A stretch of 64,000 nt of DNA from a virus: positions 61,547-125,546 of IMG/VR virus record IMGVR_UViG_3300028859_000011; one strand, written 5' to 3'. The translations under genes and the position numbers were made by a program. The notes below the pieces were generated by a model. It made no database searches. It saw nothing but the letters and a program-made list of their open reading frames with translations, and was not told the origin of the DNA. This document shows, piece after piece, positions 16,090-64,000 of the stretch; positions within the stretch are counted from its first letter, which is position 1; each line of letters begins with the position of its first letter.

Positions 16090-16129
16090 ATGTCTAAATG
16101 AGATGGTTCGACTCCCACCTAAGTTACAA
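16090..16129 (+). pseudogene. Degenerate tRNA 3' half
   Basis: GGTTCGACTCCCACCTAAGTTACAA closely matches the 3' end of the CAA tRNA (GGTTCGACTCCCATCTCAGTTACAA); no 5' half found. Confidence 0.6.
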
Positions 16130-16667
16130 ATTAAATTTCTTTGATGCTATAATTGATTCCATATCAATTATAGAACTTGACCAATACTTCATTGATCCAT
16201 CATCAGTTTTAACAATTCCTGGTCCGTCGTGAGGTCCAGGATTCATTTTTTTAACTTCATAATCAATTGAAGCCCATCTAAAATTTTCAATTCTTTCTTT
16301 CTTTATTACTTTACACAATTCAGTATTATTCCAACCAAGTAAGCAATAATCTCCAATAGATGGTAGATTTTCCAGATCTTCAATTTTTTTAGAATAGCTT
16401 TTTATTTGTTCACGTTTAACTAAAAAATTGTTATTCCACAATTCATATTTATCAAATTTAACGTTATAGTATTCTGTGTGTTTCTATAGATATTATTTTA
16501 CCTATTCTATATTTATAGTCAGTATCGTTTTTTCTAGGGGTAAAATATTCAGGTATTTTAGATTCATAGAAATCTTCGTTGAGTCTGACGTAATCATTTA
16601 TTTCTGGTTCTGAATCACGTGTAAATTCTTTTGTATTGTAGAATTCAATTTTTTTAATATGTTTCAT
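16124..16667 (-). pseudogene. Tagged protein split by a frameshift (MKHIKKIE ... SKKFNL)
   Basis: One frameshift in an ACACACA tract near 16473-16481 joins track ORFs 16464-16667 and 16124-16441 via EYYNVKFDKYELWNN. Confidence 0.65.
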
Positions 16668-17036
16668 ATGTTATATTTTTTTGCATGTATTTTTAGTTTG
16701 AATATCGTCATATATATCATCAAATGATATAGCTAAAAAATCATCAACTGATAGCATATTTTGCATGTAATCTATTCCATCACCCCAACCTCTTGTAGAA
16801 ACAGAACTGATAGATATTGAATATTCTGAATATTTTGAAACCTCAACAATTATTGCATAATAGCCTGGAGTTTTAACATTCCTTCTTATAGTATGTTCGT
16901 CATTATAACTTAGATTATATGTTTTGAGTTTATCAATAAGTTGTTCTGTTTGTTCGTCTGTTATGCCTTCAATATTTATTGCAAATCTGAATTTATTTTT
17001 AGAACTTTCATTAATGAATTGATTATATTTTTTCAT
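16664..17036 (-). CDS. MKKYNQFINE-family protein; C-terminal tag lies in a shifted frame
   Basis: Paralog of 17422-17856; the alternative frame ends IHAKKYNI* overlapping the next ATG. Confidence 0.7.
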
Positions 17037-17425
17037 AGGTTAAATTTATTTGCGTCATTTTTTAATTTAAAATAATTTTCAACTCCATCTAATCCAACCA
17101 ACAAAAATTCTTCTAATGATATTAAATTTACTTTTACTGAACTACCGAAATCTATACCTGAAATTTTAATATAATTAGTATTATTTATATCATAATACAA
17201 TGATATCTCCTATGAATATTTTGTTGATATTAAAAATTCTTCATTCCAAGAATATAATTTAACATGTTTTTTTATTTCATTTATTGCGGATTTTTTCTTA
17301 TCAATTGTATTATTTGTACTTTTATCAATAACAAATGTAATATTAGGCTCTGATTCAGGTATCATATCTTTACTATCAATTAATATGTAATTATTTTCAT
17401 TAATGAATTGGTTATATTTTTTCAT
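17033..17425 (-). pseudogene. MKKYNQFINE-family protein with an in-frame TAG
   Basis: TAG at 17210-17212; the frame stays open to ...LEEFLLVGLDGVENYFKLKNDANKFNL*, homologous to the neighbours' ends. Confidence 0.75.
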
Positions 17426-17856
17426 ATATTAAATTTATTTGCATCTTTTTTCATGTTGATAATTTCTTCTTTTGCTTTGACAAGTTCTTCAGCTCCTTCA
17501 AATCCAACTTTAAAGAATTCATCTAACGATAATATACATTCCATATAAGTATATCCTGCTCCCCAACGTGGTGTTGTAACTGTTGATATATCTATTCTAC
17601 AACGATTAAAATAATCAGTAATCTCGAATCCTAAAGCCCAAGGAAAGAAAGAATTACTTCCAAAAATATCCTTTTTGTATCTAAGACTCAATAATTCTGA
17701 TTTTCCAAATTCTGAATATTCATCATAATTTACAGATTTTTTGTAAATCATATCAAATAATTTATCAATTTGATCATCTGTGATATTTGTTATATCAACA
17801 GCAAATCTGAATTTATCAGAAATACTTTCATTGATGAATTGTTTATATTTTTTCAT
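17422..17856 (-). CDS. MKKYKQFINE...DANKFNI tagged protein
   Basis: ORF in a tandem paralog array. Confidence 0.8.
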   Translation of the reverse strand: MKKYKQFINESISDKFRFAVDITNITDDQIDKLFDMIYKKSVNYDEYSEFGKSELLSLRYKKDIFGSNSFFPWALGFEITDYFNRCRIDISTVTTPRWGAGYTYMECILSLDEFFKVGFEGAEELVKAKEEIINMKKDANKFNI

Positions 17857-18293
17857 AGGTTAAATTTATTTGCATCTTTCTTAATTTTATAAAGTGTTTC
17901 AACTCCTTCTAATCCAATTATAAGGAAATTATCTAATGAAATTATAAGGTTATTCTCACCTCTCATCTCATCAGATCTCAGTTTTAAAAAATCTATTGTA
18001 TCTCTTGGTATTGCAGAATTGCCCCAACTTTCATATACTTGAATATACCATACCCAGTAATTATTTTTATCTACTGAGAAACGTTTCCAATCAGTATCAT
18101 TATCTCTAATTAATAAACTTTTTATATTGTGAGTTTCTAATGTCACATATTTTCTAAATTCATCAAATGCTTCTTGTTGTCTTTTTTCATCTGCATCTTC
18201 CAATGATATGAAAAATTTAAAATCCATATTATTGGATGCATAATTTTCTCCATATGCTCTATTTTCGTTAATAAATTCTTTATATTTTTTCAT
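17853..18293 (-). CDS. MKKYKEFINE...DANKFNL tagged protein
   Basis: ORF in a tandem paralog array. Confidence 0.8.
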   Translation of the reverse strand: MKKYKEFINENRAYGENYASNNMDFKFFISLEDADEKRQQEAFDEFRKYVTLETHNIKSLLIRDNDTDWKRFSVDKNNYWVWYIQVYESWGNSAIPRDTIDFLKLRSDEMRGENNLIISLDNFLIIGLEGVETLYKIKKDANKFNL

Positions 18294-18757
18294 ATATTAA
18301 ATTTTTCAGCTTTTTTTATCATTAGATATTTTTGATATTGTTTTGGATATTCATCTATTATTTTCTTTTTATCATTAAGTTGTAAATATGTCAAAAAATC
18401 ATTACCAAGATTGTCTTTTAGATTCCAATTCGCATTAGATTCTATTAATACTTTTACTATATTAATATTTTCTCTTAATGTAGCATACTGTAATGCGGTT
18501 CTATCATATATATCTTGATAGTTTATATCAGCGCCTTTTTCTATTAAATACTCAACCACGTCTATTCTATTATTATCTGCTGCTAATATTAATGGTGTAT
18601 AATTATTATTTTCTATAATATTTATATCAATTTTTTCAACTTCTATATATTCTTTAACAACTTCTAAATCTCCCCTTCTACAAGCTTCAAATATACTAAT
18701 ATCACTATTGAAAAAGATATCAGAATATCTATCTTCAAATGTTTTTATAAATTTCAT
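18290..18757 (-). CDS. Ankyrin-repeat protein (MKFIKTFE...KAEKFNI)
   Basis: TPLILAA...VVEYLIEKGADIN; RTALQYA...IVKVLIESNA. Confidence 0.9.
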   Translation of the reverse strand: MKFIKTFEDRYSDIFFNSDISIFEACRRGDLEVVKEYIEVEKIDINIIENNNYTPLILAADNNRIDVVEYLIEKGADINYQDIYDRTALQYATLRENINIVKVLIESNANWNLKDNLGNDFLTYLQLNDKKKIIDEYPKQYQKYLMIKKAEKFNI

Positions 18758-19371
18758 ACCGCAGTTTTATTTTTTAATTTTGAAATTGCTTGTTTTATAA
18801 TATCTATTGTTAAGTTATTAATTTCAAATATATTAAAATCTCCTTCAATTTCTGTATTATGAGGATGTTCAATTTTAATTGACACTTTACTTAATGGTTT
18901 ACTCCCAATAACTTTTTGAGAGTCTTCTACTAATATATCAACAAATTTCCATTTATCACTTGATGAATTAACAAATATTATATCATCATATTTGAAACCA
19001 TAATGATCTAACCATTTTTTAGCAGCATTTTTAGATTCTTCAGTTGGTTGTTTAGTTATAATGTTTAATGTATATCCATAAGTTTTCACAAAGTCATATA
19101 TATTATTAACTGTATCAACTGCTCCTTTATATGGTTGAGCTATATCAAACACTTCAGCTTTTTTATTATTGAACCAAGTTTTAGATGATTCACCGTTATA
19201 ATCCATAGTTTCATACCAATGCCAATTTTGATCACTAGTTATTTCTTTATCAGGAAAATATCTTTTATATAGTGTATTATAAGAATTAACAAAATCACAT
19301 ATAGTACCATCAATATCGATTCCTATTGTTACTTTATTAGTAAATGTTTCAAATAATTTTAGATGTTTCAT
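18754..19371 (-). CDS. 5'(3')-deoxyribonucleotidase (NT5C-like HAD)
   Basis: IGIDIDGTICDF motif I, IITKQ, ILVEDS; N-terminus MKHLKLFETF. Confidence 0.85.
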   Translation of the reverse strand: MKHLKLFETFTNKVTIGIDIDGTICDFVNSYNTLYKRYFPDKEITSDQNWHWYETMDYNGESSKTWFNNKKAEVFDIAQPYKGAVDTVNNIYDFVKTYGYTLNIITKQPTEESKNAAKKWLDHYGFKYDDIIFVNSSSDKWKFVDILVEDSQKVIGSKPLSKVSIKIEHPHNTEIEGDFNIFEINNLTIDIIKQAISKLKNKTAV

Positions 19372-19394
19372 ATTTTAATTAAAATTTTATATAT

Positions 19395-19454
19395 TATATA
19401 TAAATTTTTAAGCTAAGATTTATTTTAAAAATGAGTTATATTTTTTTATATATA
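19395..19454. promoter_or_regulatory. Divergent pair of TTTATATATA motifs (candidate phage late promoter)
   Basis: Minus strand 19395-19404 before 19371; plus strand 19445-19454 before 19481; the motif recurs before many other genes. Confidence 0.55.
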
Positions 19455-19480
19455 ATATAATAAAAAACAACTTAACTATA

Positions 19481-19675
19481 ATGAAAACAAAACTAGAAAA
19501 CCTATTAAGTTTTACTGATTTTACTGGTAACTATAATTCACAGCAAGCAACTAAAACTAAAAGAACAGACACTGGAGTAGATGTCATAAAAGAAAATAAT
19601 GAAGAGAATATCGAAGATAATATTGAAGATAAAGATTATTCTACTGAATTTGATTCTGAACTTGAAAAAGATTAA
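19481..19675 (+). CDS. Small acidic protein
   Basis: MKTKLENLLSFTDF N-terminus, D/E-rich tail. Confidence 0.6.
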   Translation: MKTKLENLLSFTDFTGNYNSQQATKTKRTDTGVDVIKENNEENIEDNIEDKDYSTEFDSELEKD

Positions 19676-19870
19676 TATATATTTAATTAACAAAAAAATA
19701 TAGAATTGAAATTATTCTATATTTTTATATAATTCACATATTGCTATTCCAGTTATTATATCATATGATATTATTTCTCCTATGATTTCAGTTAAATTTT
19801 CTTCTGATACAACTGTGCCTATAACATCATCCATTATTAATTTTTTTTCAAGTTGAATTTTTATTTCCAT

Positions 19871-20062
19871 TTAATATTCATTTAATTTTTTAAGTTTTAA
19901 TTTTCTTAATTCTGATTGATCATAATAGAATATAGCAATAGTTATATAATCATCATCTTGAGTTTGAGTGACATTGAATATTTCAATATTACTAGTAGAC
20001 AACCATTCATTTATTTTTTCTTCTAATGTAGTTTTATTAGAATTTATAATCTTACATTTCAT
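19871..20062 (-). CDS. Small protein with RKLKLKKL tag
   Basis: ORF ending ELRKLKLKKLNEY. Confidence 0.65.
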   Translation of the reverse strand: MKCKIINSNKTTLEEKINEWLSTSNIEIFNVTQTQDDDYITIAIFYYDQSELRKLKLKKLNEY

Positions 20063-20175
20063 TATTTAAAAATATTTTTATACATTATATATTATAAGTT
20101 ATGCATTCAAATTAAAAATTAACTCATATTTATAATAATAAAAAATTATATATAATTAAAATATAAAAAATATCA

Positions 20176-20439
20176 ATGAGTAAAAATAATTTAATTTTAA
20201 TTTCTAAACCTAATACCACCAAATATTACATTAATTTTTTAAAGACTACTGGAAAAATAGCATTAGAAATTGATAATAATGAAATTTATATGTTATCAGA
20301 AGATAATAATTTTTTAATAATGGAGAATGGCTCATATGAATTAAATGAAATTTATAATAATGAAATTTATATGTTATCAGAAGATAATAATTTTTTAATA
20401 ATGGAGAATGGCTCATATGAATTAAAAGAAATTTTATAA
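20176..20439 (+). CDS. Probable structural accessory protein with an internal 27-aa duplication
   Basis: NNEIYMLSEDNNFLIMENGSYEL occurs twice; 73 bp identical at a period of 81 nt. Confidence 0.6.
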   Translation: MSKNNLILISKPNTTKYYINFLKTTGKIALEIDNNEIYMLSEDNNFLIMENGSYELNEIYNNEIYMLSEDNNFLIMENGSYELKEIL

Positions 20440-20497
20440 TTGATAAAATTTATTTTAATTATAAAATTTATATATAATATAAAATAATTAACAAAAT

Positions 20498-20938
20498 ATG
20501 AATAGCGAAAAACAATCAAAATTATGGATAAATAATAACTGGGTATATTTCAAAATAAAAATTGGTACGTACACTAATATTATCACATTTTTAGATGATA
20601 ATAATATATCTTTTATTAAATATAATTATATTGATTTTACTAAAATTCCAAGTGTTATATATGGTTACGGTAAGAGTACAAATTTATTAGAATATTTATC
20701 TAATAATAATAACAATGGAAATTTAATAATATCATTTTTAAATTATTTTTTAAATAGTTTAAAATTTAGTTATATTGATGGATCAGCAATAAGAATATTA
20801 ATGGTGAATAATATAGATTGGAAAATTTCAAATGTAATAGTTATAAAAAATAATTGGAAGTATTTTACAGTTGATACATCATTTTTTACCGCAGATAATA
20901 GTATAATTACAGCAGATAAAACAATTATTACAATATAA
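20498..20938 (+). CDS. Probable structural accessory protein
   Basis: C-terminal FTVDTSFFTADNSIITAD motif; lies in an operon with the fibre gene. Confidence 0.55.
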   Translation: MNSEKQSKLWINNNWVYFKIKIGTYTNIITFLDDNNISFIKYNYIDFTKIPSVIYGYGKSTNLLEYLSNNNNNGNLIISFLNYFLNSLKFSYIDGSAIRILMVNNIDWKISNVIVIKNNWKYFTVDTSFFTADNSIITADKTIITI

Positions 20939-20962
20939 TTATTTCATAAAAAATAAAAAAAT

Positions 20963-23992
<3,030 letters not shown>

Positions 23993-23996
23993 AAAT

Positions 23997-24025
23997 AAAA
24001 GAGTAGATTTTAAATCTACTCTTTT
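23997..24025. terminator. Bidirectional terminator
   Basis: aaaagagtagattt-t-aaatctactctttt between convergent genes. Confidence 0.8.
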
Positions 24026-24612
24026 TACATATTAAATTTTTTAGAATCTCTATATAAAGGATAATATTTAGTATTAATTTCATCATATTCTTTCCAACTC
24101 GTTTGAAATATATATCCAAAATTTTCTACATATTTATTATTTTTAGCCATATCTATAAATAGTTTGTGATAATTTATACATCTATTAATAAAAAATTCCC
24201 CTTTCCCTATAATAGAGCTAATTAAATCTAAATAACCATCATCTGATGGCATAAAGGCTGAATATTTATTATCTAGCCAAGTAGGTTTAAAATATAAATA
24301 AAGTTCTTCTATTAACTTATCATATTCATTTTTAAAATTCATAAGAGTATTATATTCAAAATTTTTGAATACTCTTATTTTCAATTTTAATTCTTCTTCT
24401 TTATCTTTATTTTCAAATTCATCCTTAGTTTTAATTATTTTATTCCAATCAACTACACGTATAAAATTCCAAAAATCATCACTATAATTATTAACATTAG
24501 GCTTATTAATTCTAATAATATCACCGTTACTAGTTATAGTTATCAAATTACCATTTTTATCATAATGCTCATTGTACTCTATATTTTCAAATATTTTAAA
24601 AATTGTTATCAT
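24025..24612 (-). CDS. Tagged hypothetical protein (MITIFKIFE...SKKFNM)
   Basis: ORF with both terminal tags. Confidence 0.75.
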   Translation of the reverse strand: MITIFKIFENIEYNEHYDKNGNLITITSNGDIIRINKPNVNNYSDDFWNFIRVVDWNKIIKTKDEFENKDKEEELKLKIRVFKNFEYNTLMNFKNEYDKLIEELYLYFKPTWLDNKYSAFMPSDDGYLDLISSIIGKGEFFINRCINYHKLFIDMAKNNKYVENFGYIFQTSWKEYDEINTKYYPLYRDSKKFNM

Positions 24613-24616
24613 ATTA

Positions 24617-25771
24617 TTACATATTAAATTTATTTGTATCTACGATAAACATATATTGTTTAAATTCTTTTTTAATTTCTGAATCTAATATGAAATTAGA
24701 ATTTAGTTTTTTTAACGCATCAGCTATCAAATCACCTTTTTCTTCTTCTGTACTATCATCATAACCGTTTTCTTTTACATATTCTTTTATATATCTTTTT
24801 TGAAATTCATATTCATCTGAAATATCATCATTATGCTCATCTTTATCTTCAAATATTTCAAAAAGTAACAATGTAAGATTATCTGAATCATTAAAATTAT
24901 CCATTAAATAATGTTGTATTTCTATGCTATTTGCAATTTGATATTTTATCCAATCAGATTTAGTATCATCATTTTCAAATTTTTTATAATTTTTTACAAG
25001 TTTATCATCATCTATATATGAACTAAAATTTTGATAAAATTTTTTAGGAGTCATATCTTTAATAAGTTCTGATAAATTATCTACACAATATATTTCTACT
25101 AATAGTTCGGTAAAATATCTACCTTCATATCTATCTCTGATCATTTCATCAAAAAAATCTACTTCATCAGTATATTCTTGTATTACATATTTTAATTGAT
25201 CTGAATCTAAATCATCTATCATATCAGAATCATATTCCACATCATTACTTTTTGCAATAATAGTATCATAACTAATTTCATCTCCATCTTCAACCAAAAT
25301 AAAAAAATTATTAGGTATTTCATATTCCTCAGTAGAATCACCTTCAGTTATTACAATTTTTCGTATATCATCATTTTCTATAATAGAAACTATTCCATCA
25401 TATTCAGTTTTTATAATTTTTTCACTATCATTATTTTCACAATAATATTCAATTATTTTATTCTCCATTTCTATAGTTAAATGATTTTCTATATAATCTT
25501 TAAATTCTTGATCATCAAAATCATCCATTGATGAATTATTAATTTCATTTTTTATAGTATCTTCAACATATTTATCACTATCAAAAACTCCAGATATTAT
25601 ATTTGGATCATTTGTTATTATATCAATAATATCACTCTCATTATAATTAGTCAAATAGTGTTCATCATAATAATTTGATATATAATCATTATCTAAAAAT
25701 TCATTTACTAATTCATATTTTGAGCTATCTGCACTCTCAAATAATTTAAATTTTTTAAAACTTACTATCAT
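24617..25771 (-). CDS. Very acidic tagged protein (MIVSFKKFKLFE...DTNKFNM)
   Basis: 384-aa D/E-rich ORF with both terminal tags. Confidence 0.8.
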   Translation of the reverse strand: MIVSFKKFKLFESADSSKYELVNEFLDNDYISNYYDEHYLTNYNESDIIDIITNDPNIISGVFDSDKYVEDTIKNEINNSSMDDFDDQEFKDYIENHLTIEMENKIIEYYCENNDSEKIIKTEYDGIVSIIENDDIRKIVITEGDSTEEYEIPNNFFILVEDGDEISYDTIIAKSNDVEYDSDMIDDLDSDQLKYVIQEYTDEVDFFDEMIRDRYEGRYFTELLVEIYCVDNLSELIKDMTPKKFYQNFSSYIDDDKLVKNYKKFENDDTKSDWIKYQIANSIEIQHYLMDNFNDSDNLTLLLFEIFEDKDEHNDDISDEYEFQKRYIKEYVKENGYDDSTEEEKGDLIADALKKLNSNFILDSEIKKEFKQYMFIVDTNKFNM

Positions 25772-25895
25772 ATTTTTTATTTTGTTATATCTTTAATTTT
25801 TATTATGATTAAATGCTATTTTAATAATATCTATTGATATTAATTATAATAGATGATGAAACTATTCATTATATAAATACAACTCTTAAAACTCA

Positions 25896-26720
25896 TTATA
25901 TGTTGAATTTACTGGTATCATTAATAATACTCCATTCATTATAGTATTCATCTGATAATAAATTAGAAAAATCATCTATTGTTTTATATAATTCATTTTT
26001 AAATATAAAGAATTTTTTCAATTCTTCAATTTTATATTCTCTATCTGCAATAAATTTTTTATTTTTATTTTTATCAATATTTTGTAAAAAAATATTAGAG
26101 TCAAATAAATATTCATTAAATATTATACTATATTTGAATAATTTTGTTCTTAAATTATAAAATTGATGAATAGATATAAAATTAGGTATTTTACCAGTAT
26201 ATACATTTTTAATATGTGCTGAATTAAAATTGATATTATCTATTTCAAAATAACCATAAGTATCTTTTGTAAAATTATTAGTTTTTCTAATGAGTTTATC
26301 AAAAACATCTACATAACGTGATTTTATTTTTGCACTATTAAAATATTTTGATATATTTTTATCTTTACTAATATATAACATAATATTATATAATTCTGAT
26401 GAATACATTTTATTTTGAATATCAGTTATTTCTGAATCATATTCTTTTAATATTCTATCATTTTCTTCTTCTTTAAATTTTTCACGTCCTATTTTTTTAA
26501 TATGATTTATTCGTTCTTTCTCTATAATATCTAATTTTTTTCTATATTCAGGATCAAATTCTTCATATTTTTGTTTAGCAATATTAAGTCCTTTGTTACC
26601 AATTAAATTTAAAAATTTAGTATATAACTCTGAATTCTCTTTTTTTACCTTATCTAAAAACTTAACATTTTCTTTATCTTGTAGTATATCAAATACTTTA
26701 AATTCAAATATTTTTTTCAT
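25896..26720 (-). CDS. Tagged hypothetical protein (MKKIFE...DTSKFNI)
   Basis: ORF with both terminal tags. Confidence 0.75.
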   Translation of the reverse strand: MKKIFEFKVFDILQDKENVKFLDKVKKENSELYTKFLNLIGNKGLNIAKQKYEEFDPEYRKKLDIIEKERINHIKKIGREKFKEEENDRILKEYDSEITDIQNKMYSSELYNIMLYISKDKNISKYFNSAKIKSRYVDVFDKLIRKTNNFTKDTYGYFEIDNINFNSAHIKNVYTGKIPNFISIHQFYNLRTKLFKYSIIFNEYLFDSNIFLQNIDKNKNKKFIADREYKIEELKKFFIFKNELYKTIDDFSNLLSDEYYNEWSIINDTSKFNI

Positions 26721-26723
26721 TTA

Positions 26724-27062
26724 TTATAAATTAAAATTTTTAGTGTCATTAGTAAATTCTGGAACATTAAAATATTCAAGAAAAATTGGAAATCTATTAT
26801 AATTAACATTAAACTCTTGTAGATTTTCATTATCATCGAACATAAGAACTTTATGAATACATTCAATCGGCAAATAATTTAAGACATATTTATTTATTGC
26901 TGCTTCTGTATCACCATAATATCCAGAAACCTTATAATATACCCCTTTTTTAAAATTTATAACTTCATTAGTTGATTTTTTATGATAATTTTTTATGCAT
27001 ATTACATTATCATCTATTCTCCTCAAATCTGGATTATTATAATTTTCAAATATAGTTATCAT
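26724..27062 (-). CDS. Tagged hypothetical protein (MITIFE...DTKNFNL)
   Basis: ORF with both terminal tags. Confidence 0.75.
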   Translation of the reverse strand: MITIFENYNNPDLRRIDDNVICIKNYHKKSTNEVINFKKGVYYKVSGYYGDTEAAINKYVLNYLPIECIHKVLMFDDNENLQEFNVNYNRFPIFLEYFNVPEFTNDTKNFNL

Positions 27063-27400
27063 AAATTAAATTTATTTGTATCTAATATTAAAAGATATTC
27101 TTTTTTTGCATCTTTAATATTATCATATGATGATTTAACATAAATTTCATAAATATATAATATATCAGTTAATTTACATTCAAAACTTAAATCATCTGGA
27201 TTCCACATATAAATTTCAAGATTAACACTATAATATGAATTAACACTAATAAATTTAGCAAGATAATAATCTTCTTTATATTTAAATATTACATATTTAT
27301 CATAATATTTTTTATAGTCCAATGCTTTTTTAGCCATCTTTTCATTACATTTTTTTATTGAATCTTCAATAGTATTTTCAAAATGTTTAATATACTTCAT
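27059..27400 (-). CDS. Tagged hypothetical protein (MKYIKHFE...DTNKFNL)
   Basis: ORF with both tags; TTTATATATA on the minus strand at 27423-27432. Confidence 0.75.
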   Translation of the reverse strand: MKYIKHFENTIEDSIKKCNEKMAKKALDYKKYYDKYVIFKYKEDYYLAKFISVNSYYSVNLEIYMWNPDDLSFECKLTDILYIYEIYVKSSYDNIKDAKKEYLLILDTNKFNL

Positions 27401-27698
27401 TTAATATAAATATAATTTATAATATATATAAAAATAAAATAACGCAAACTTTTATAATTATTATTTATATAATAAATAAAAAAATATGCAAACAGTTTGT
27501 TTTTAATTCATCAGATAAAACTACTATTTTATATGAAGGTTAGATTAGGTTATTATGAAATAATGCAAAAAAAAGAAATATCTAATTATAGCAATGGAAA
27601 AAATGTTACGTTTTCAGTGGCCAGATTACCTATTTCTAATACCAATATGATAATAAAAAATGAATAAATATTATATAAATATTATATAAATATTATAT

Positions 27699-28283
27699 TT
27701 ATAAATTAAAAATATTTGCATCTCTTTTCATTTCCCATTCTTCTTTATATTGCGGAAATCTATCTGTTATATATTTTTCAATATTATCAATAAACTCATT
27801 TTTATGATCATTAATTTTTTTATATTTCATAATATAATCATAAAAATTTTCATCGTAATTATTTTTTTTATCAAGATTAAATCCATGACTTAAAAATTTA
27901 TTTAATATTATAATAAATGTTCCTGAATCATAAATATATTGTACATAATATACTAATGCTGAATTATCATTAATATCTCTAATATTAACATCTGCTTTTG
28001 CATTTAATAATTTATTAATAACTAATAATGTAGACGCCATCATTAATGCTGTCATTTTGTGCTTATCAGTAGCATTAACATCAGCATTTCCTTCTATTAA
28101 TGCATCAACAACAAATGGAAATTTAATAGCGTGCATTAATGCTGTTCTACCATCAGAATCTTTCATATTAATTTCAACATTTTCTTTTATCGCTTGCTTT
28201 ACCGCATTTGTATTTCCTCTTTTTGCTGCTGATATAAAAGGATGCTCTTTTACTGATTTTTCAAATAATTTTAAATATTTCAT
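27699..28283 (-). CDS. Ankyrin-repeat protein (MKYLKLFE...DANIFNL)
   Basis: AAKRGN, DGRTALMHA...ALIEGNADVNATD, TALMMAS...LLNAKADVN. Confidence 0.9.
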   Translation of the reverse strand: MKYLKLFEKSVKEHPFISAAKRGNTNAVKQAIKENVEINMKDSDGRTALMHAIKFPFVVDALIEGNADVNATDKHKMTALMMASTLLVINKLLNAKADVNIRDINDNSALVYYVQYIYDSGTFIIILNKFLSHGFNLDKKNNYDENFYDYIMKYKKINDHKNEFIDNIEKYITDRFPQYKEEWEMKRDANIFNL

Positions 28284-28336
28284 TTTTAATATTTGATTTT
28301 TTTATTATAAACTATATATAATTTTTTTAAAAAATA

Positions 28337-28362
28337 AAAAATCCTGATTTCTCAGGATTTTT
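28337..28362 (-). terminator. Terminator after the VWA gene
   Basis: aaaaatcctga...tcaggattttt. Confidence 0.7.
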
Positions 28363-28366
28363 ATTT

Positions 28367-29863
28367 TTATTTGTCTATAAACAATTTATTATCAGGTGGC
28401 CATTGTATATCTGGAGCTTCTTGCGCTTCAGTAATTACCCATAATATTTTATCATAATATTTAGGAATTTGATATTTAAATTTATTTGGTGGAACACCAT
28501 GAGAATCTGTAAAATATATAACAAACGAAGGAACTGTTCCTTTTTTAATCATATTATTTTCAATCCATTGAAACGGCGGAATAAAACTTGTTCCTCCTCC
28601 ACCTATTGCTTTAAAATGTTTAGCAAGAATTTCTTTAAATTTACCTTCATTCATAGAATCTCCACTCTTTGTTTTAAGATCTATTTTTTCTATTCCTTTT
28701 ATATCAGCATCACACCATATAATTATAGCTTCTTCTATTTTTTTTGAACCAAAAATACCATAAATTTCTGCTGCAAATTTACCAAGTGTATCATCTCCAA
28801 TTGAGCCAGATGTATCAACACATAATACAATTTTTCTAAATCCACTATCCTTAGGAAATTTTAATCCTGGTAAATACATTGGATCATCTTGACCTATAAA
28901 TCTCTTATTAAAATAACCATATTTAGGATTACTAGCAAAGCATTTATTCATAAATTTAATTAATGTCGCTTTCCAATTAACTTTTGGTTTACCAATTTTA
29001 TTAAACCATCTATTCAATGTTGCTGAACCAGTTCCTTGATTTTTACTTTTAGCATCATTTAATATCTTACCCCATTCTCTAGCTAAATCTGTAACATCTT
29101 CTACTTTTGCTAATTCATCATTACCTTCAAATAATGTTGGTCCTTTTTTATCAGTTAAACTACCTGGCTCTCTTAAATCATTTGTTCCTGGTATTGAACC
29201 TCCTCCATCTCCTCCTGGACCTCCTCCATCTCCTCCTGGACCTCCTTCATCTCCTCCTGGACCTCCTCCTGGACCTCCTCCATCTCCTCCTGGACCTCCT
29301 CCATCTCCTCCTTTTTTAGGTTTTTTAGGATTATTTTTTTCTTCTGTTTCAAGAATCACATAAATTTGTTCAGCACTCATACCTCTATATTTTTCATCTA
29401 ATAAAATATTTTGTGGTACACTCAATATATTAACAACAGATGCTGCACCTTCAGGCTTTTCTTTACTCATATCAGCTATTTGAATATTAATAGCATAATC
29501 AGTTGCTTGATTCCACAATGAATGATCTCTATCTCCTTGTCTTAAAAAGTGAAGATTTGCGTTATGCATAACTTCATGTATCAGCACAAATGCTACTTCC
29601 TCAGTATTTCTTAATACTTCATTTACAAATTTAGGACTATATAAAATACTTTTACCATCAGTTGCCATAGTGTCAATTCCACTATTTGGAGATGCTTCTG
29701 CGATAGTCAATTGAAAAAATAAATCAGCAAAGAAATTATAATACGACATAGTAGATGCTAATGCTGCTCTAACTCTACCTTTTGCTAATTTATTTAAATT
29801 TGGATCATTTAAATCTTCATTTGTACTTAATAAATTAAATATGTTAAATTTTTTTATCATCAT
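28367..29863 (-). CDS. DUF2201-type metallopeptidase plus VWA domain protein
   Basis: TMATDG, IHEVMH (HExxH), Gly/Pro/Asp linker, MIDAS VDTSGS; likely start at MMIKKF (29863) rather than the track's 29914. Confidence 0.88.
   Translation of the reverse strand: MMIKKFNIFNLLSTNEDLNDPNLNKLAKGRVRAALASTMSYYNFFADLFFQLTIAEASPNSGIDTMATDGKSILYSPKFVNEVLRNTEEVAFVLIHEVMHNANLHFLRQGDRDHSLWNQATDYAINIQIADMSKEKPEGAASVVNILSVPQNILLDEKYRGMSAEQIYVILETEEKNNPKKPKKGGDGGGPGGDGGGPGGGPGGDEGGPGGDGGGPGGDGGGSIPGTNDLREPGSLTDKKGPTLFEGNDELAKVEDVTDLAREWGKILNDAKSKNQGTGSATLNRWFNKIGKPKVNWKATLIKFMNKCFASNPKYGYFNKRFIGQDDPMYLPGLKFPKDSGFRKIVLCVDTSGSIGDDTLGKFAAEIYGIFGSKKIEEAIIIWCDADIKGIEKIDLKTKSGDSMNEGKFKEILAKHFKAIGGGGTSFIPPFQWIENNMIKKGTVPSFVIYFTDSHGVPPNKFKYQIPKYYDKILWVITEAQEAPDIQWPPDNKLFIDK
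29199..29312. repeat. 21-nt tandem repeat encoding the GGDGGGP linker
   Basis: ctcctccatctcctcctggac units. Confidence 0.85.
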
Positions 29864-29874
29864 TTTTATTTTTT

Positions 29875-31413
29875 TTATTTTCCTACCATAGTTTTTTGGA
29901 ATACAGAATGCCATTTTTTAGCAAATTCTGTCCATATAGGTAAATATTCTTTTTTAATATATGGATGAGCTTTTAAGAAATAAGATCCTATTGTTACAAT
30001 TGCCTCATTTTCTTTACCCATAGTAGCGAAATCATATACATTTTTTACTTCATCAGCAGTCAAATGTTTACCTTGTTTAAAAGTTGCAATAGCAATTGAA
30101 CAAGCTCTAATTTGGTCTTGTCTTGTAGGCCATTTTACTTTTTTAGATTCTGCATTACCATCATATATATCTTGAATATCTTTTTCACTAAAGAACTCTT
30201 GTAATTTCATATAATTAATAAAATCTAATGTAGGTTCTAATCCTACATATTTAGTGTATATTTTTTGAATTTGAGGATATGTTAATTTTTTAGACCAATC
30301 TTCACCTCTATAATTATATTCATCTTGTGAAGCCATTTCCCAAGATCTTGGAGATGCCCATACTGGACTACCAGATTCTAGATCTAATCTATGAAAGTAA
30401 TTAGGATGATATTGTAAATATGAAATAAGAAATGGATTAATATCTTTTTTAGTTAATGCCCATTTAACCCAATCATCAACAGTTGGAGTATAATTAACAT
30501 GAGCAAAACGATTCCACAAAATTGGATCATCAGTCAAATCAGTTGTATTTATATCATCTTTTCTATTACCTGCTGCAATAATAATCCATCTTGGAGGTAA
30601 ATCATAATCACCATGTTTACCACTTAATGCTAATGCTAATGATGCACTTAATACCATTTGTGGTGCTCTATTCATTTCATCAAAAAACATAATACCACCT
30701 TTTCCATTACCATCACTTGTAGGAAATATTGCTGGTAATTTAGAAACAGTTTGATTATTTTCAATTTTAGGAACTCCTCTAAAGTCAGTAGGTTCAATTT
30801 GGGATAAATGCCATTCTTGAACAACAATATCTAATTCTTTAGCTACCTGATGTAAAATTTCAGTTTTACCAATACCAGGAGCGCCCCAAATAAACAATGC
30901 ATGTGTTTTTTTTCTGGCAAATTCAGAGGTTCTTTCATAATTATCTTGTTCATGCTTAGTTGCTCTATGTAAATTCATATTATAAACTCTTTTGATTCTA
31001 TCTTTAAGCTCATCAACATTTATATTTCTCATTACTTCTTCATCACCACTTGGATATTTTAAAGTTACAAATGCTTCATCTACAGGCATTTCTTTTTTTA
31101 TTTTTTCTCCTTTTTCATCAAATCTTGAACGTATTTCATTTTCTATATCTTCTGCTGTAGGAACTTTAACACCAGATTTCATTCTATCAAAATAATTATT
31201 TGGAATAATCACTTCAACTACATCTCTAGTTTTACCATCTTCATCTACATATGTTGGAATTTCACCTTTTTCTTTTAAATATTTAGCATAATATAACCAT
31301 GAATTTTTACCAAATTTTTTATTGAAAAAATTAGATACCACATTCCATGCGTTTTTTAACACATTTTCATTTAATTTATATTCTTCAGAATAACTATCAT
31401 ATTTCTTTATCAT
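29875..31413 (-). CDS. MoxR-type AAA+ ATPase, copy 1
   Basis: Walker A GAPGIGKT, LSQIEPTDFRGVP, Walker B FFDEMNRA, AAGN, NRF, SPRSWE. Confidence 0.9.
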   Translation of the reverse strand: MIKKYDSYSEEYKLNENVLKNAWNVVSNFFNKKFGKNSWLYYAKYLKEKGEIPTYVDEDGKTRDVVEVIIPNNYFDRMKSGVKVPTAEDIENEIRSRFDEKGEKIKKEMPVDEAFVTLKYPSGDEEVMRNINVDELKDRIKRVYNMNLHRATKHEQDNYERTSEFARKKTHALFIWGAPGIGKTEILHQVAKELDIVVQEWHLSQIEPTDFRGVPKIENNQTVSKLPAIFPTSDGNGKGGIMFFDEMNRAPQMVLSASLALALSGKHGDYDLPPRWIIIAAGNRKDDINTTDLTDDPILWNRFAHVNYTPTVDDWVKWALTKKDINPFLISYLQYHPNYFHRLDLESGSPVWASPRSWEMASQDEYNYRGEDWSKKLTYPQIQKIYTKYVGLEPTLDFINYMKLQEFFSEKDIQDIYDGNAESKKVKWPTRQDQIRACSIAIATFKQGKHLTADEVKNVYDFATMGKENEAIVTIGSYFLKAHPYIKKEYLPIWTEFAKKWHSVFQKTMVGK

Positions 31414-31459
31414 TTTATTTTTTTTATTTTTTTATAATTTATTATTTTAGGTTTTTTAA

Positions 31460-32878
31460 TTATTCTGGTGTTCCCTTCTTTTTTCTTCTTTCTTCATCTT
31501 TCTTTCTTTCTTCTTCACGTTCTTTCTCATCTATTTTTTGCAACCAGTTAACAAATGCGGTAGCACTTGCATATCCAACAAAATCTTCATATATATTTTT
31601 TACTTCATTATATGGTAATTTATTTTTCCAATCAAATCCTCTTTCAAAATAATCTTCTTCTGATGCCATCTCCCAAGTTCTTGGAGATGTCCAATTTGGA
31701 GCTTGACTAACAGTATTTAATCTATGATAATATTCTGGATTTTCAGTAATAAATTGTATAAGTTTAGGATTAACTGATTTTATATTTTTTGCATATCCAA
31801 TCCAATCAGAAGGTCTTGGAGAAAAATTAATATGCTGAAATCTATTCCATAAAATTTTATCATCAGTTAAATCACCTGTACTTAAATCTGATCCTCTATT
31901 ACCTGCAGCAATAACTATCCAATATTGAGGTAATTCATAAGTACCATGTTTACCACTTAATGCTAATGATAATGATGCATCAAGTACCATTTGTGGTGCT
32001 CTATTCATTTCATCAAAAAACATAATACCACCTTTTCCATTTTTACCATTACTGGTAGGAAAAATTGATGGTAATTTCCAAACTGTTCTTTCATCTTTTG
32101 AATCATCAGATCCAATAATATTTTCAATTTTAGGAATTCCTCTAAAGTCAGTAGGCTCAATTTGTGATAAATGCCATTCTATTACGGCAATATCTAATTC
32201 TTTAGCTACCTGATGTAAAATTTCAGTTTTTCCAATTCCAGGTGCACCCCAAATAAATATCGCATTAGTTTTTTTTCTACCAAATTCATTAGATTTTTCT
32301 CCTTCTTCTTGATGCCTACCTGCTCTAAGAGCATTCATATTATAAAGTCTTTTTACTTCTTCTTTTAATTCAGCAACATCTTCATTAACTACATTTGGAT
32401 CTGGATGATCTAAACTTACAAAATCTTGATTATCATCAAGTAAACTTTCATTCAAATATATTTTTGTTAAACTTTCTTTAACTTTTTCTAATTCTTCTAT
32501 TTCATTATCAACTTTATTTTCTTCTTGATTTTCATCATCTTTAAGTCCAGGAATTTCATTTTCTTTTTCATCTTCAACTGTTTCATTATCAACAGGTTCA
32601 ACATCAGATTGAATTTGAGAATCTTCAATTTCTTTATCAGTTGGTATATCTGATATGTTAGCATATGTTGGAGGACATATTAATTCAATACCTTTTGGTA
32701 GTTTTCCTTTTTTCTGTAAATATAATGCATAATATATCCAAGCGTGTTTTCCAAAATGATTTTTGAAAAAAGAAATTACTTTATTAAAAATATCAGAAAA
32801 GACATTTTCATTGATTTTTGCACTTTCATTTGCTCTATATTCTTTAGAAAAATGATCATAATTTTTTAATGTTTTCAT
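31460..32878 (-). CDS. MoxR-type AAA+ ATPase, copy 2, with a short charged C-terminus
   Basis: Same motifs as copy 1 (GAPGIGKT, FFDEMNRA, SPRTWE); TTTATATATA upstream at 32900-32909. Confidence 0.9.
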   Translation of the reverse strand: MKTLKNYDHFSKEYRANESAKINENVFSDIFNKVISFFKNHFGKHAWIYYALYLQKKGKLPKGIELICPPTYANISDIPTDKEIEDSQIQSDVEPVDNETVEDEKENEIPGLKDDENQEENKVDNEIEELEKVKESLTKIYLNESLLDDNQDFVSLDHPDPNVVNEDVAELKEEVKRLYNMNALRAGRHQEEGEKSNEFGRKKTNAIFIWGAPGIGKTEILHQVAKELDIAVIEWHLSQIEPTDFRGIPKIENIIGSDDSKDERTVWKLPSIFPTSNGKNGKGGIMFFDEMNRAPQMVLDASLSLALSGKHGTYELPQYWIVIAAGNRGSDLSTGDLTDDKILWNRFQHINFSPRPSDWIGYAKNIKSVNPKLIQFITENPEYYHRLNTVSQAPNWTSPRTWEMASEEDYFERGFDWKNKLPYNEVKNIYEDFVGYASATAFVNWLQKIDEKEREEERKKDEERRKKKGTPE

Positions 32879-32939
32879 TCTTTGAAATTATTTTTATTTT
32901 ATATATAAATTTTTCAATTTCCTTTTTTTATTCAAAAAT

Positions 32940-33599
32940 TTATATATTATTTTGTTTGCTCTCTGATGAATATTTTGCTTGTCTCCATCTAATATCATTC
33001 ATTGTACCCCAACCTGTTTTATATGAACCTCCATAAATTTTAGGATTAGTACCTGCAGCTATTTTTACGGCTTTTTCTTTGGCATTCATTAAATGCCACA
33101 ATTTTTCTCTTTCTGGTACATTTTCTGATCCTGTATAATCTTCAATAGAAACTAAATCTTCTACATCAAAATCTACATCAGAATTATAATAATCATCAAT
33201 ATCATTACTAAATTTAGTTTTTACTATTTCACCATCTTTTTTAACTACTTCGATTCTCCAATCATTATTAAAAATTTTAATATTTAATTCATTTTCAATT
33301 TTTCTAATTATTGATTTAAATAATAATATATTTGGATAAATCCAAAAAGATATAATTTTACTTTTAGTCCATAATCTTCCAGGATAACTCGGATTCTCTA
33401 CATCATAACCTGCATTAAAATGTGAATCTTGATAATCACCAAAATAAACATTTATTACATTTGTGTGATTATCATTAACTTCACAATAAAAAGGTTTAGA
33501 ATCTTTATCATCCATATCACATACTTTTTTACCATTCTCATCACGTATATAACTCGGATTTTCTTTTATTAATTTAAATTCTTTAAATTCTTTAATCAT
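32940..33599 (-). CDS. Hypothetical protein with tag-like N-terminus (MIKEFKEFKLIKE)
   Basis: 219-aa ORF containing GRLW...IISFW. Confidence 0.7.
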   Translation of the reverse strand: MIKEFKEFKLIKENPSYIRDENGKKVCDMDDKDSKPFYCEVNDNHTNVINVYFGDYQDSHFNAGYDVENPSYPGRLWTKSKIISFWIYPNILLFKSIIRKIENELNIKIFNNDWRIEVVKKDGEIVKTKFSNDIDDYYNSDVDFDVEDLVSIEDYTGSENVPEREKLWHLMNAKEKAVKIAAGTNPKIYGGSYKTGWGTMNDIRWRQAKYSSESKQNNI

Positions 33600-52080: not shown

Positions 52081-53705
52081 ACAGTAAATTGTTTAATCAA
52101 AAAAAAATAATAAAGTTTGTTGATAAATTTAATAGAAGAAGAAAATTACAAAATATAAATAAAATAATATGAGTATAACAGCTAAAATGATTTGCAATCC
52201 AGGTGCAGGTAAATTTCGCATTAATGGTAGTTCATTTTCAGGTACAATTGAAAGCGCAAAAATGAATCCTTATCAAGCAGAATTATTATTGAAAGATATG
52301 AATATATCAGATATTGAAAGATTTTTAAGAAAAAATAAATTAAATAATATTAATAATATTAATAAATAATTATGCCACATAAATCATCTTGGACAACTGA
52401 AATTAGTAATGAAATTAATATGTCTACATCAGATAAAATTGAGAGATTTATTAACTATGCATCAAAAGAAGTAATCAATAATTTATTAGAAAAATTTGAT
52501 ATTAAAGATGTTGAAAATTTTTTAAGAACTAAAAAATTAAAAAATTTATCAAATGAATTATAATTTAGAACATAATATAGATGAAATAGCATATGATTTA
52601 TATTTAAAATCATGTGGTAAGAATGAATTTACAATTGGATTTAGTTCTTATTTATATATTAGATATTATGGTAATAATTCAAGTAAAATAATACTCGATA
52701 ATTATATTAAAGCAAATAATATTTTAAGAAAATTAAAATTAGAAAAATTAGAAAATGTTAATAGATAAGTCAATAGGTAATTGGTGTGAAAAAGGAGAAT
52801 CAGATGATATAGATGATATTGCATTTCAGTTATATTTAAATTATTATTATGAAACATATAATTCATTCAGTCAAGCTGAACAATATATGTTTATGACATT
52901 AAGAAAAGACCAGCAACGTGATAATGCTAAATTATATCGATTTTATAAAAAAGCGTATAATATATTAAGAAAATTAAAATTAGAAAAATTAGAAAATGAG
53001 TACAAATTATGATGATATATATTCAAATCTTATTATAGATAAATCAATAGGAAAATGGTCTAATGATCGTTTATATTCTGAACTTGAAGATATGTTTTAT
53101 CAGATATATATTCATTGGTATTATCATGAATATATTATTGATAATCCTTATGACAATCATTCATTAGAATCTCAATCTTGGTTTATATCTTATTTAAATA
53201 CATCAGAACATAAAAATGATGGATCTTATGATTTATATTATAATAAAGCAAATAGCATATTAAGAAAAAATAAATTAGAAAAAATAAAAAATGCAGAATA
53301 ATTTCAAAACTGTTGATAAAGCAAATAATTTCAAACCTGGTGATAAAGTAATATGCATTAATATTCCAATAAATTCAAAATTAATTATTAGTGCATTATA
53401 CACAATATATGATGCGAATAACATTTATGTTAGATTAATTGAGGATGATAATAAAGGTTATTATAGATATTCAAGATTTAAACCAGATATTAAATCAAAC
53501 AGAAAATTAAAATTAAAAAAAATAAATGAATAGCGAGGATGATTTAATTGAATATTTTATAAAAAAATTATATATAACATCTGGTGTACCAAAAAAATAT
53601 TTATATCCTGATCCACTTGATTCTATTAATTTTAATGTAATTTTAAAATATGTAAGAAAAAAGAAATTATATTATATAAAAAATAATAAATTGAATGATG
53701 AATAA
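52077..53705 (+). CDS. Run of eight small RKxKL-tagged ORFs (52077-52172, 52169, 52372, DDIAY-family 52553/52755/52996, KOW-like 53291, 53526-53705)
   Basis: Ends include RRRKLQNI, LRKNKLNNI, LRTKKLKNL, LRKLKLEKL twice, LRKNKLEKI, NRKLKLKKI, VRKKKLYYI. Confidence 0.75.

Positions 53706-63576: not shown

Positions 63577-64000
<424 letters not shown>

Follow-up and report, generated by a model that had tools for sequence, protein, structure and literature searches.

Paired N- and C-terminal motifs as candidate address labels on a large, variable protein set of a huge-phage lineage

This analysis concerns a stretch of 64,000 nucleotides (the window) that makes up the right half of a linear viral contig of 125,546 bp from IMG/VR (IMGVR_UViG_3300028859_000011, here G000; 22.5% G+C). 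On its minus strand, 13 genes in 16124-28283 open with a clear short leader, and 11 of them also end in a second motif placed exactly at the C-terminus. The best-supported reading is that these two tags are address labels on a large and fast-changing set of late accessory proteins in a huge phage, whose genome would measure about 700 kb given the 18% completeness that CheckV assigns to G000. More specifically, the tagged proteins may be packaged in the virus head by way of a leader resembling the capsid-targeting sequence (CTS) of phage T4, a reading that we hold tentatively, at not quite an even chance. Leaders of the CTS type are a known kind; the additional C-terminal element is undescribed in the literature searched, where no relevant mention of either motif was found.

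The closest deposited relatives of G000 are the metagenomic “huge phages” LR756500-LR756504. A 235-kb contig (G001) is a much nearer relative, with syntenic genes and a MoxR protein 82% identical to that of G000. We compared the leader pattern across G000, G001, LR756501 (735 kb), an unrelated 290-kb phage and a reversed-pattern control.

Two motifs at opposite ends of the same proteins

The leaders take three related shapes: MK[YHF][IL]KxFE; MI[TV]xFK(I/L)FE or MITIFE; and MKKY[NK][QE]FINE. All 16 N-termini listed in an earlier, sequence-only reading of this DNA are present at the genes to which it assigned them; 13 genes are clear members, and four N-termini from a MoxR/VWA operon are doubtful. 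An ATG-anchored DNA pattern for M-K-x-[LIV..]-[KR]-x-[FY]-E (an aliphatic residue at the fourth position) matches 13 sites on G000 and 19 in G001, compared with none in the reversed control in either case, and has no match in LR756501 or the unrelated phage. At the protein level, [FY]E begins at residues 5-9 in 25 of 226 G000 open reading frames (ORFs), where 8.5 would be expected. The set also extends beyond the positions 16124-33599 and the minus strand to which it had been limited: about ten more are found in the remaining 61 kb of G000, and many of these are plus-strand genes.

The second motif, absent from the sequence-only reading, is [KN][FY]N[LIMV] exactly at the C-terminus, usually after D/N-[TAS]-[NKS]. 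It ends 21 of the 226 G000 ORFs (0.7 expected), and the G000 proteome contains 33 K[FY]N[LIMV] tetrapeptides, 18 of which are the last four residues of their protein. N and C tags are associated with each other on G000 (Fisher p=1.2e-15) and in G001 (2.5e-22). Proteins with one tag exist as well: among the clear window members, the NT5C-type nucleotidase has the N tag only and the product of 16671-17036 has a decayed C tag, while a 375-aa protein resembling ADP-ribosyltransferases (ART-like) also has the N tag only and several proteins have only the C tag. Tagged genes make up about 10% of the total (21/226 in G000, 42/400 in G001). In 151 representatives of one tagged family, with an SH3-like core, the leader-final Glu is near-invariant (144 of 151), as are Asn at -2 (150) and Lys at -4 (148) of the C tag. 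The C tag always stands at one distance from the free carboxylate, which points to a pocket dedicated to its recognition.

These features bear on an alternative in which the tags address a destination or partner other than the capsid. They might be read by an AAA+ machine or a C-peptide-binding domain, for docking or degradation, or might sort proteins to a phage-built compartment or a host secretion route. Example readers would be a ClpX/ClpA-type protein, a PDZ or tail-specific protease, or a tetratricopeptide repeat (TPR) carboxylate clamp. The C tag, always the last four residues and near-invariant at two of them, fits this alternative, and F-N-L-COOH matches the hydrophobic-x-hydrophobic-COOH pattern of class II PDZ ligands. 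Like those ligands and ClpX C-motifs, the tag is set by its distance from the free C-terminus and is hydrophobic at -1 and -3; unlike them, it has an invariant Asn at -2 and Lys at -4, and it bears no similarity to the LAA ending of ssrA. Moreover, G000 encodes an 844-aa Clp/Hsp100-type AAA+ protein, a DnaJ-like protein and MoxR ATPases, and so many tagged genes would make an unusually long list of virion cargo. However, five lineage fragments totalling 1.16 Mb yielded no phage-encoded C-terminal reader (no PDZ_2 or Peptidase_S41 gene), although the reader could be a host protein, and a non-capsid address leaves the T4-like leader, the match to the capsid propeptide and the promoter shared with head genes (all described below) unexplained. 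We regard this alternative as rather unlikely.

Unrelated cores, protein-level selection and turnover

BLAST grouped the 73 tagged proteins of G000 and G001 into 43 clusters, and at least 30 unrelated cores lie under the tags, including ankyrin, NT5C, DUF4240 and SH3-like cores. The majority are orphans; Pfam matches are to ankyrin repeats (4), NT5C nucleotidase (2), DUF4240 (2), DUF7487 and, below threshold, ART-PolyVal. In NT5C the leader is an add-on, since the Pfam domain begins only at residue 14, past the leader. The data as a whole support the leaders as protein-level additions to unrelated cores.

AlphaFold2 (AF2) models built from two family alignments agree on the behaviour of the two ends. 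In both, the predicted local distance difference test (pLDDT) is below 50 across the leader (residues 1-10 in one model and 1-16 in the other, that of the product of 17853-18293), and the second model has a short detached helix at residues 4-10; on these models, the leader looks like an exposed flexible peptide. The C tag closes a long, confident C-terminal helix in both (103-118 and 120-144). An intramolecular “clasp” between the two tags is not supported, because the leader is disordered in both models. Fold searches with the two models gave weak matches to generic SH3-like barrels, or none, and the cores stay orphans.

A structural explanation, in which the N helix and C helix would form a shared oligomerization or “connector” module of one superfamily or co-assembly, draws on the co-occurrence of the tags, on the long high-pLDDT helix that the C tag closes, and on the finding that both tags are the best-conserved columns of the family alignments. 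It is at variance with the detached, disordered leader, albeit in monomer models that cannot test intermolecular contact, with the proteins that carry one tag only, and with the unrelated folds of the cores. We consider it quite unlikely.

The evidence favours selection on the tags at the protein level, judging by their codon and residue usage. Within the tags, K is encoded by AAA or AAG and E by GAA or GAG, the aliphatic position uses seven codons (TTA, TTG, CTA, CTG, ATA, ATT and ATC), and F/Y and L/I/M/V swap at their positions. A profile of the tagged SH3-like family matched 3025 metagenome clusters (50% identity), and a search of INPHARED found the family in no deposited phage. Tagged homologs (P0005, P0158 and P0167) also lie on a 711-kb contig. 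Among the 151 top profile hits examined, 150 retain [FY]N[LIV]-COOH and at least 142 retain the leader, with E8, K-4 and N-2 nearly invariant while the cores fall to about 30% identity. Similarly, between orthologs of G000 and G001 the tags are 80% and 78% identical, compared with 68% for the cores.

Weighed against these data, a DNA-level origin would make the tags by-products of stop/start junctions (AAATTTAAYATATGAAATAT...) acting as recombination linkers or translational-coupling signals for cassette shuffling. One array does have identical 15-mers at five junctions, and of 22 C-tag sites, 12 run into the ATG of the following gene (as ATATGA or TTATGA), but the remaining 10 end in TAA with no overlapping start, including those of the last genes of operons, and genes that stand first in an operon bear an N tag with no C tag before them. 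Synonymous differences between G000 and G001 orthologs are rarer in tags (11-12%) than in cores (22%), so some nucleotide-level constraint or gene conversion at the junctions is possible; this, together with a cassette content that varies between relatives, would suit such an origin. In contrast, the swapping of F/Y, L/I/M/V and several Leu/Ile codons while residue class is kept, and the persistence of the tags over 3025 diverged clusters, argue against it. We consider a DNA-level by-product highly improbable.

The tagged set differs between close relatives. G000 and G001 carry different sets of cassettes at the same loci, and three related contigs (L029, L031 and L033) have 6, 9 and 11 cassettes between the same flanking genes. 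In the window, two separately called “genes” correspond to broken tagged genes, one interrupted by a stop (17033-17425) and the other by a frameshift at 16442-16463 (16124-16667). Two broken cassettes at the end of the array suggest rapid decay and turnover. Programmed frameshifting at AAATTTA was considered and rejected, as the zero frame there reads AAA-TTT-A, not X-XXY-YYZ.

Head module, promoter box and the packaging reading

PHROGs scans of the large proteins of G000 found no capsid, portal or protease gene, and PF03420 and PF07068 were not found in G000 or G001. Because head genes are absent from these two contigs, we used the capsid protein of LR756501 as bait for lineage contigs. In LR756501 itself, a gp23-type capsid protein lies beside an 807-811-aa protein with a weak gp21-type protease match. 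Four lineage contigs (L072, L075, L080 and L105; 24-27% G+C) encode a gp20 portal (213 bits) and a gp23 capsid protein (86 bits), as well as a protease of 781-812 aa with borderline scores for Peptidase_S80 (26 bits; cut-off 23.4) and S77 (23.8 bits; cut-off 27). The head-module records bear 3-7 N-tagged genes each, compared with none in controls, and tagged genes lie inside the head module, between portal and protease. One longer contig, G010, which contains L080, is collinear with G001 over 1-20 kb at 82-95% nucleotide identity and extends about 37 kb further to reach the head module. This collinearity indicates that the tagged lineage has a prohead protease of the T4/phiKZ type. Characterized relatives in this protease family cut after Glu (PMC5694885).

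A short motif links the leader to the capsid protein. Across 3.5 million six-frame residues (all fetched DNA), [ILMV]NEN.AY occurs in two places only: at the leader/core junction of the MKKYxQFINE class, as [FY]-I-N-E-N-R-A-Y, and at position 41-44 of every capsid-protein homolog of the clade. The capsid-protein region aligns weakly with the middle of the N-terminal propeptide of T4 gp23, a propeptide of 65 residues as confirmed by PDB chains of 521 and 456 residues. The INE|NRAY match suggests that cargo leader and capsid propeptide may share a putative protease site.

Moreover, the tagged operons share a promoter-like element with head genes. A T-run followed by a TATATATA box lies 7-35 nt before the first gene in 6 of 8 genuine tagged operons (6 of 11 by automatic count), before 16 of 82 other operon starts, and before none of the 6 starts of “family B”, a block of small “early-type” genes with a different C-terminal motif, RKxKLxxL. 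The same box precedes a tail-fibre gene, a MORN-repeat protein gene and other large, late-looking genes, and the portal, protease and capsid-protein genes of the lineage are preceded by similar T-run+(A/T)ATATATA boxes. The sharing of the box with head and tail genes, and its absence before small “early-type” genes, support the sequence-only reading. An exact TATATATA box, which that reading placed before all of the operons, precedes five operon starts of the window (19371, 27400, 28283, 32878 and 33824) but not 25771. At several starts only 7-9 nt separate box and ATG, a spacing that points to late mRNAs that are leaderless or nearly so. Throughout the contig, A/T-rich stretches precede start codons and no Shine-Dalgarno sequence is visible. 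Elsewhere in the window, a long run of small plus-strand genes (35845-63416), many with R-K-x-K-L-x-K-L/I-type C-termini, constitutes a second, different tag family; neither the N leader nor the TATATATA box was found among these genes.

In the head-packaging model, a flexible amphipathic leader (M-K-aromatic-aliphatic-K-x-F/Y-E or MKKYxQFINE) would recruit each protein to the scaffold core during prohead assembly, and an S77/S80-type prohead protease would cut the leader off after the invariant Glu. The mature proteins, among them ankyrin binders, a nucleotidase, SH3-like proteins and possible ADP-ribosyltransferases, would be retained in the head and then pass into the host together with the DNA. 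The C-terminal helix ending K-[FY]-N-[LI]-COOH would act as a second, lineage-specific signal, either as a peptide docking to core or shell or with a role in ejection. Every step of this model, from targeting and cleavage to packaging and ejection, is inferred, as is the function of the C tag. A more elaborate form, two-signal loading, has no known precedent: cleavable leader and carboxylate-anchored C peptide would together dock more than 100 different, rapidly exchanged cargoes, either onto the prohead core or onto one another in a bolus that assembles itself, and cleavage after Glu would free them for ejection as a very large modular arsenal against the host. We think this form unlikely.

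In the packaging reading the leader would act like the T4 CTS, MKTYQEFIAE (PMC8442874), which is cut once after Glu and can load foreign proteins (PMC8442874, PMC3012670). As with the T4 CTS (IPI/IPII/IPIII and Alt; gp21), the leader here is a short sequence common to unrelated, non-essential-looking proteins, is amphipathic and ends in Glu, and in the MKKY[KN][QE]FINE class (for example MKKYKEFINE) it is identical to the T4 sequence at 7 of 10 positions. The hypervariable cassette loci resemble the T4 internal-protein locus, the lineage has gp20-, gp21- and gp23-type head genes, and a possible ADP-ribosyltransferase among the tagged proteins recalls T4 Alt. A second precedent is the group of phiKZ, 201phi2-1 and SPN3US, which have an S80 protease and giant myovirus-type heads with dozens of internal proteins, and in which a protease related to that of T4 cuts off propeptides after Glu. 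Paralogs with conserved N-termini also occur there, for example SPN3US gp53 and gp54 (PMC5694885). Unlike the leaders described here, however, the propeptides of the phiKZ group are mostly longer than 100 residues with [SAG]-x-E sites, and that group has no short leader shared by unrelated proteins and no C-terminal tag.

The T4-like head packaging proposed by the sequence-only reading is supported in part, by the add-on leaders, the 7/10 match, the near-invariant Glu, the predicted disorder of the leader, the head module, the shared box and the variable arrays, but several points weigh against it. The strongest is the C tag, an added and obligatory element here that T4 lacks and that leader-only packaging would not need. 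The commonest leader has 8 residues and ends x-[FY]-E, neither the [LI]-x-E of T4 nor the [SAG]-x-E of phiKZ, and would fit only if the phage protease had a different specificity; only the FINE, IFE and LFE variants conform to [LI]-x-E, T/K/H-F-E is the ending of many leaders, and the T4-like 10-mer is confined to a single paralog family. The cargo is mildly acidic (median pI 5.5, with 55% below pI 6), whereas T4 internal proteins are basic; high basicity defines T4 IPI-III, not CTS cargo generally. About 100 tagged genes per genome compare with a handful in T4, and the extrapolated figure, more than 100, is greater than for the cargo of any virion known. G000 itself does not carry the prohead protease, which is seen only in collinear relatives and, unlike in T4, continues there into a long coiled-coil region. 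Although LR756501 has the head module in common with the lineage, it shows no N tags and no clear C-tag excess, in contrast to the tag-rich G000, G001 and G004-G012. The phage is, moreover, uncultured.

Encapsulin cargo-loading peptides offer a further analogy. They too are short terminal sequences, usually C-terminal, on unrelated cargo, and they load an HK97-fold shell; they differ from the tags in their Gly/Leu/Ile-rich consensus, in not being tied to a free carboxylate and in having no protease step.

The head-module contigs show additional features. The prohead protease domain occupies the first ~150 residues and is followed by a coiled-coil-like tail of ~650 residues (L072:7615-9987; L080:7630-9975; and, in LR756501, L005:35244-37667), a possible fusion of protease and scaffold. 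Between portal and protease lie large ORFs of 520-545 aa on the reverse strand (MILSNKIEIRIN...NIKHYKKL...; L072:5822-7459; L080:4614-6203; L075:4163-7425) that resemble mobile or homing-type insertions, and similar ORFs follow the capsid-protein gene. Just upstream of the LR756501 head module (L005, 23235-27500) are four ~340-aa paralogs with CTS-like N-termini (MSTLSHYKNFVNE, MALYNYNGFLFE), and a 58-aa ORF nearby starts MKHVKKFTINE. This tag-free relative may use other leaders.

The window array and what the tags would mean

The 13 clear tagged genes of the window all lie on the minus strand. At the end of the array, the broken gene at 16124-16667 (544 nt) has an N part (16464-16667) that starts MKHIKKIE and a C part (16124-16441) in a different frame that ends KKFNL. 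The gene at 16671-17036 has an MKKYNQFINE leader and is a paralog of 17422-17856, with a decayed C tag (it ends TCKKI), and that at 17033-17425 (MKKYNQFINE ... DANKFNL) contains one in-frame stop at 17207-17209. They are followed by 17422-17856 (MKKYKQFINE ... KDANKFNI), which has an ATGA start/stop overlap with both neighbours, and by 17853-18293 (MKKYKEFINE|NRAYG ... KDANKFNL), whose leader is nearest to that of T4. Next come an ankyrin-repeat protein (18290-18757; MKFIKTFE ... KKAEKFNI) and the NT5C-type 5'-nucleotidase with the N tag only (18754-19371; MKHLKLFE), whose gene opens its operon 24 nt downstream of a TATATATA box.

The second group of tagged genes begins with 24025-24612 (MITIFKIFE ... 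DSKKFNM), which has a weak DUF4240 match; its C tag overlaps no following start because it is the last gene of its operon. Upstream of it are genes for an acidic 384-aa orphan (24617-25771; MIVSFKKFKLFE ... DTNKFNM), a 274-aa orphan (25896-26720; MKKIFE ... DTSKFNI), a 112-aa orphan (26724-27062; MITIFE ... DTKNFNL) and a 113-aa orphan (27059-27400; MKYIKHFE ... DTNKFNL), the last being first in its operon with a TATATATA box 23 nt upstream. A second ankyrin-repeat protein (27699-28283; MKYLKLFE ... RDANIFNL) has its box 30 nt upstream.

The operon at 28367-33599, also on the minus strand, encodes a 219-aa orphan, two MoxR-type AAA+ ATPases and a DUF2201 metallopeptidase/VWA protein, with a TATATATA box 22 nt before 32878. 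Because their N-termini (MIKEFKEFKLIKE, MIKKYDSYSEEYKLNE, MKTLKNYDHFSKEYRANE and, at the probable true start of the VWA protein, MIKKFNIFNLLSTNE) are loosely leader-like and a C tag is absent, these proteins are doubtful members, and the AAA+ ATPases, which had been counted among the tagged proteins, probably do not belong to them. The loose N-termini are kept as such in G001, and the LR756500 homolog of the MoxR ATPase encoded at 29875-31413 aligns from residue 13. In the metallopeptidase/VWA gene (28367-29914), an internal Met start (MIKKFNIFNLL...) is probable, as in the G001 ortholog, and the 13 codons upstream of it are likely untranslated.

Evidence for ADP-ribosyltransferases among the tagged proteins consists of leads. 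The ART-PolyVal match (25.4 bits, under the cut-off) falls on a truncated G001 gene and is a lead only, and the 375-aa protein with the N tag alone gives weak ART-PolyVal leads with Atlas scores of 0.86-0.87 and a template modelling (TM) value of ~0.4. Some N-tagged proteins combine “LYHG[ST]” motifs with such weak leads; their minus-strand genes lie at 52468-53595 of G000 (L003:12468-13595) and at L016:16649-17438 of G001, where the copy is apparently truncated or frameshifted. Two plus-strand genes of the window contain internal repeats: 21307-23367 encodes a 686-aa fibre-like protein with dozens of “xSNFxxNxI” repeats, and 20176-20439 is an 87-aa ORF with an exact internal duplication, in which NEIYMLSEDNNFLIMENGSYEL occurs twice. 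The C-terminal end of the fibre-like protein (...KMTIVDANA) recurs in a 122-aa minus-strand ORF at the right end of the window (63577-63945).

If the tags turn out to specify another address, the labelling of 10% of a genome remains an unexplained piece of huge-phage cell biology. If they are loading signals, sequence alone would be enough to catalogue which proteins uncultured huge phages inject, and the catalogue would run to hundreds of candidates for anti-defence or host takeover (ankyrin, SH3-like, nucleotidase and ADP-ribosyltransferase-like proteins). The capsid-targeting principle of T4 would then be ancient and scaled up about twenty-fold in this lineage, and the motif paired with the leader at the C-terminus would represent a signal of a new type. 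Moreover, such a short, portable tag pair could help to load foreign proteins into large capsids.

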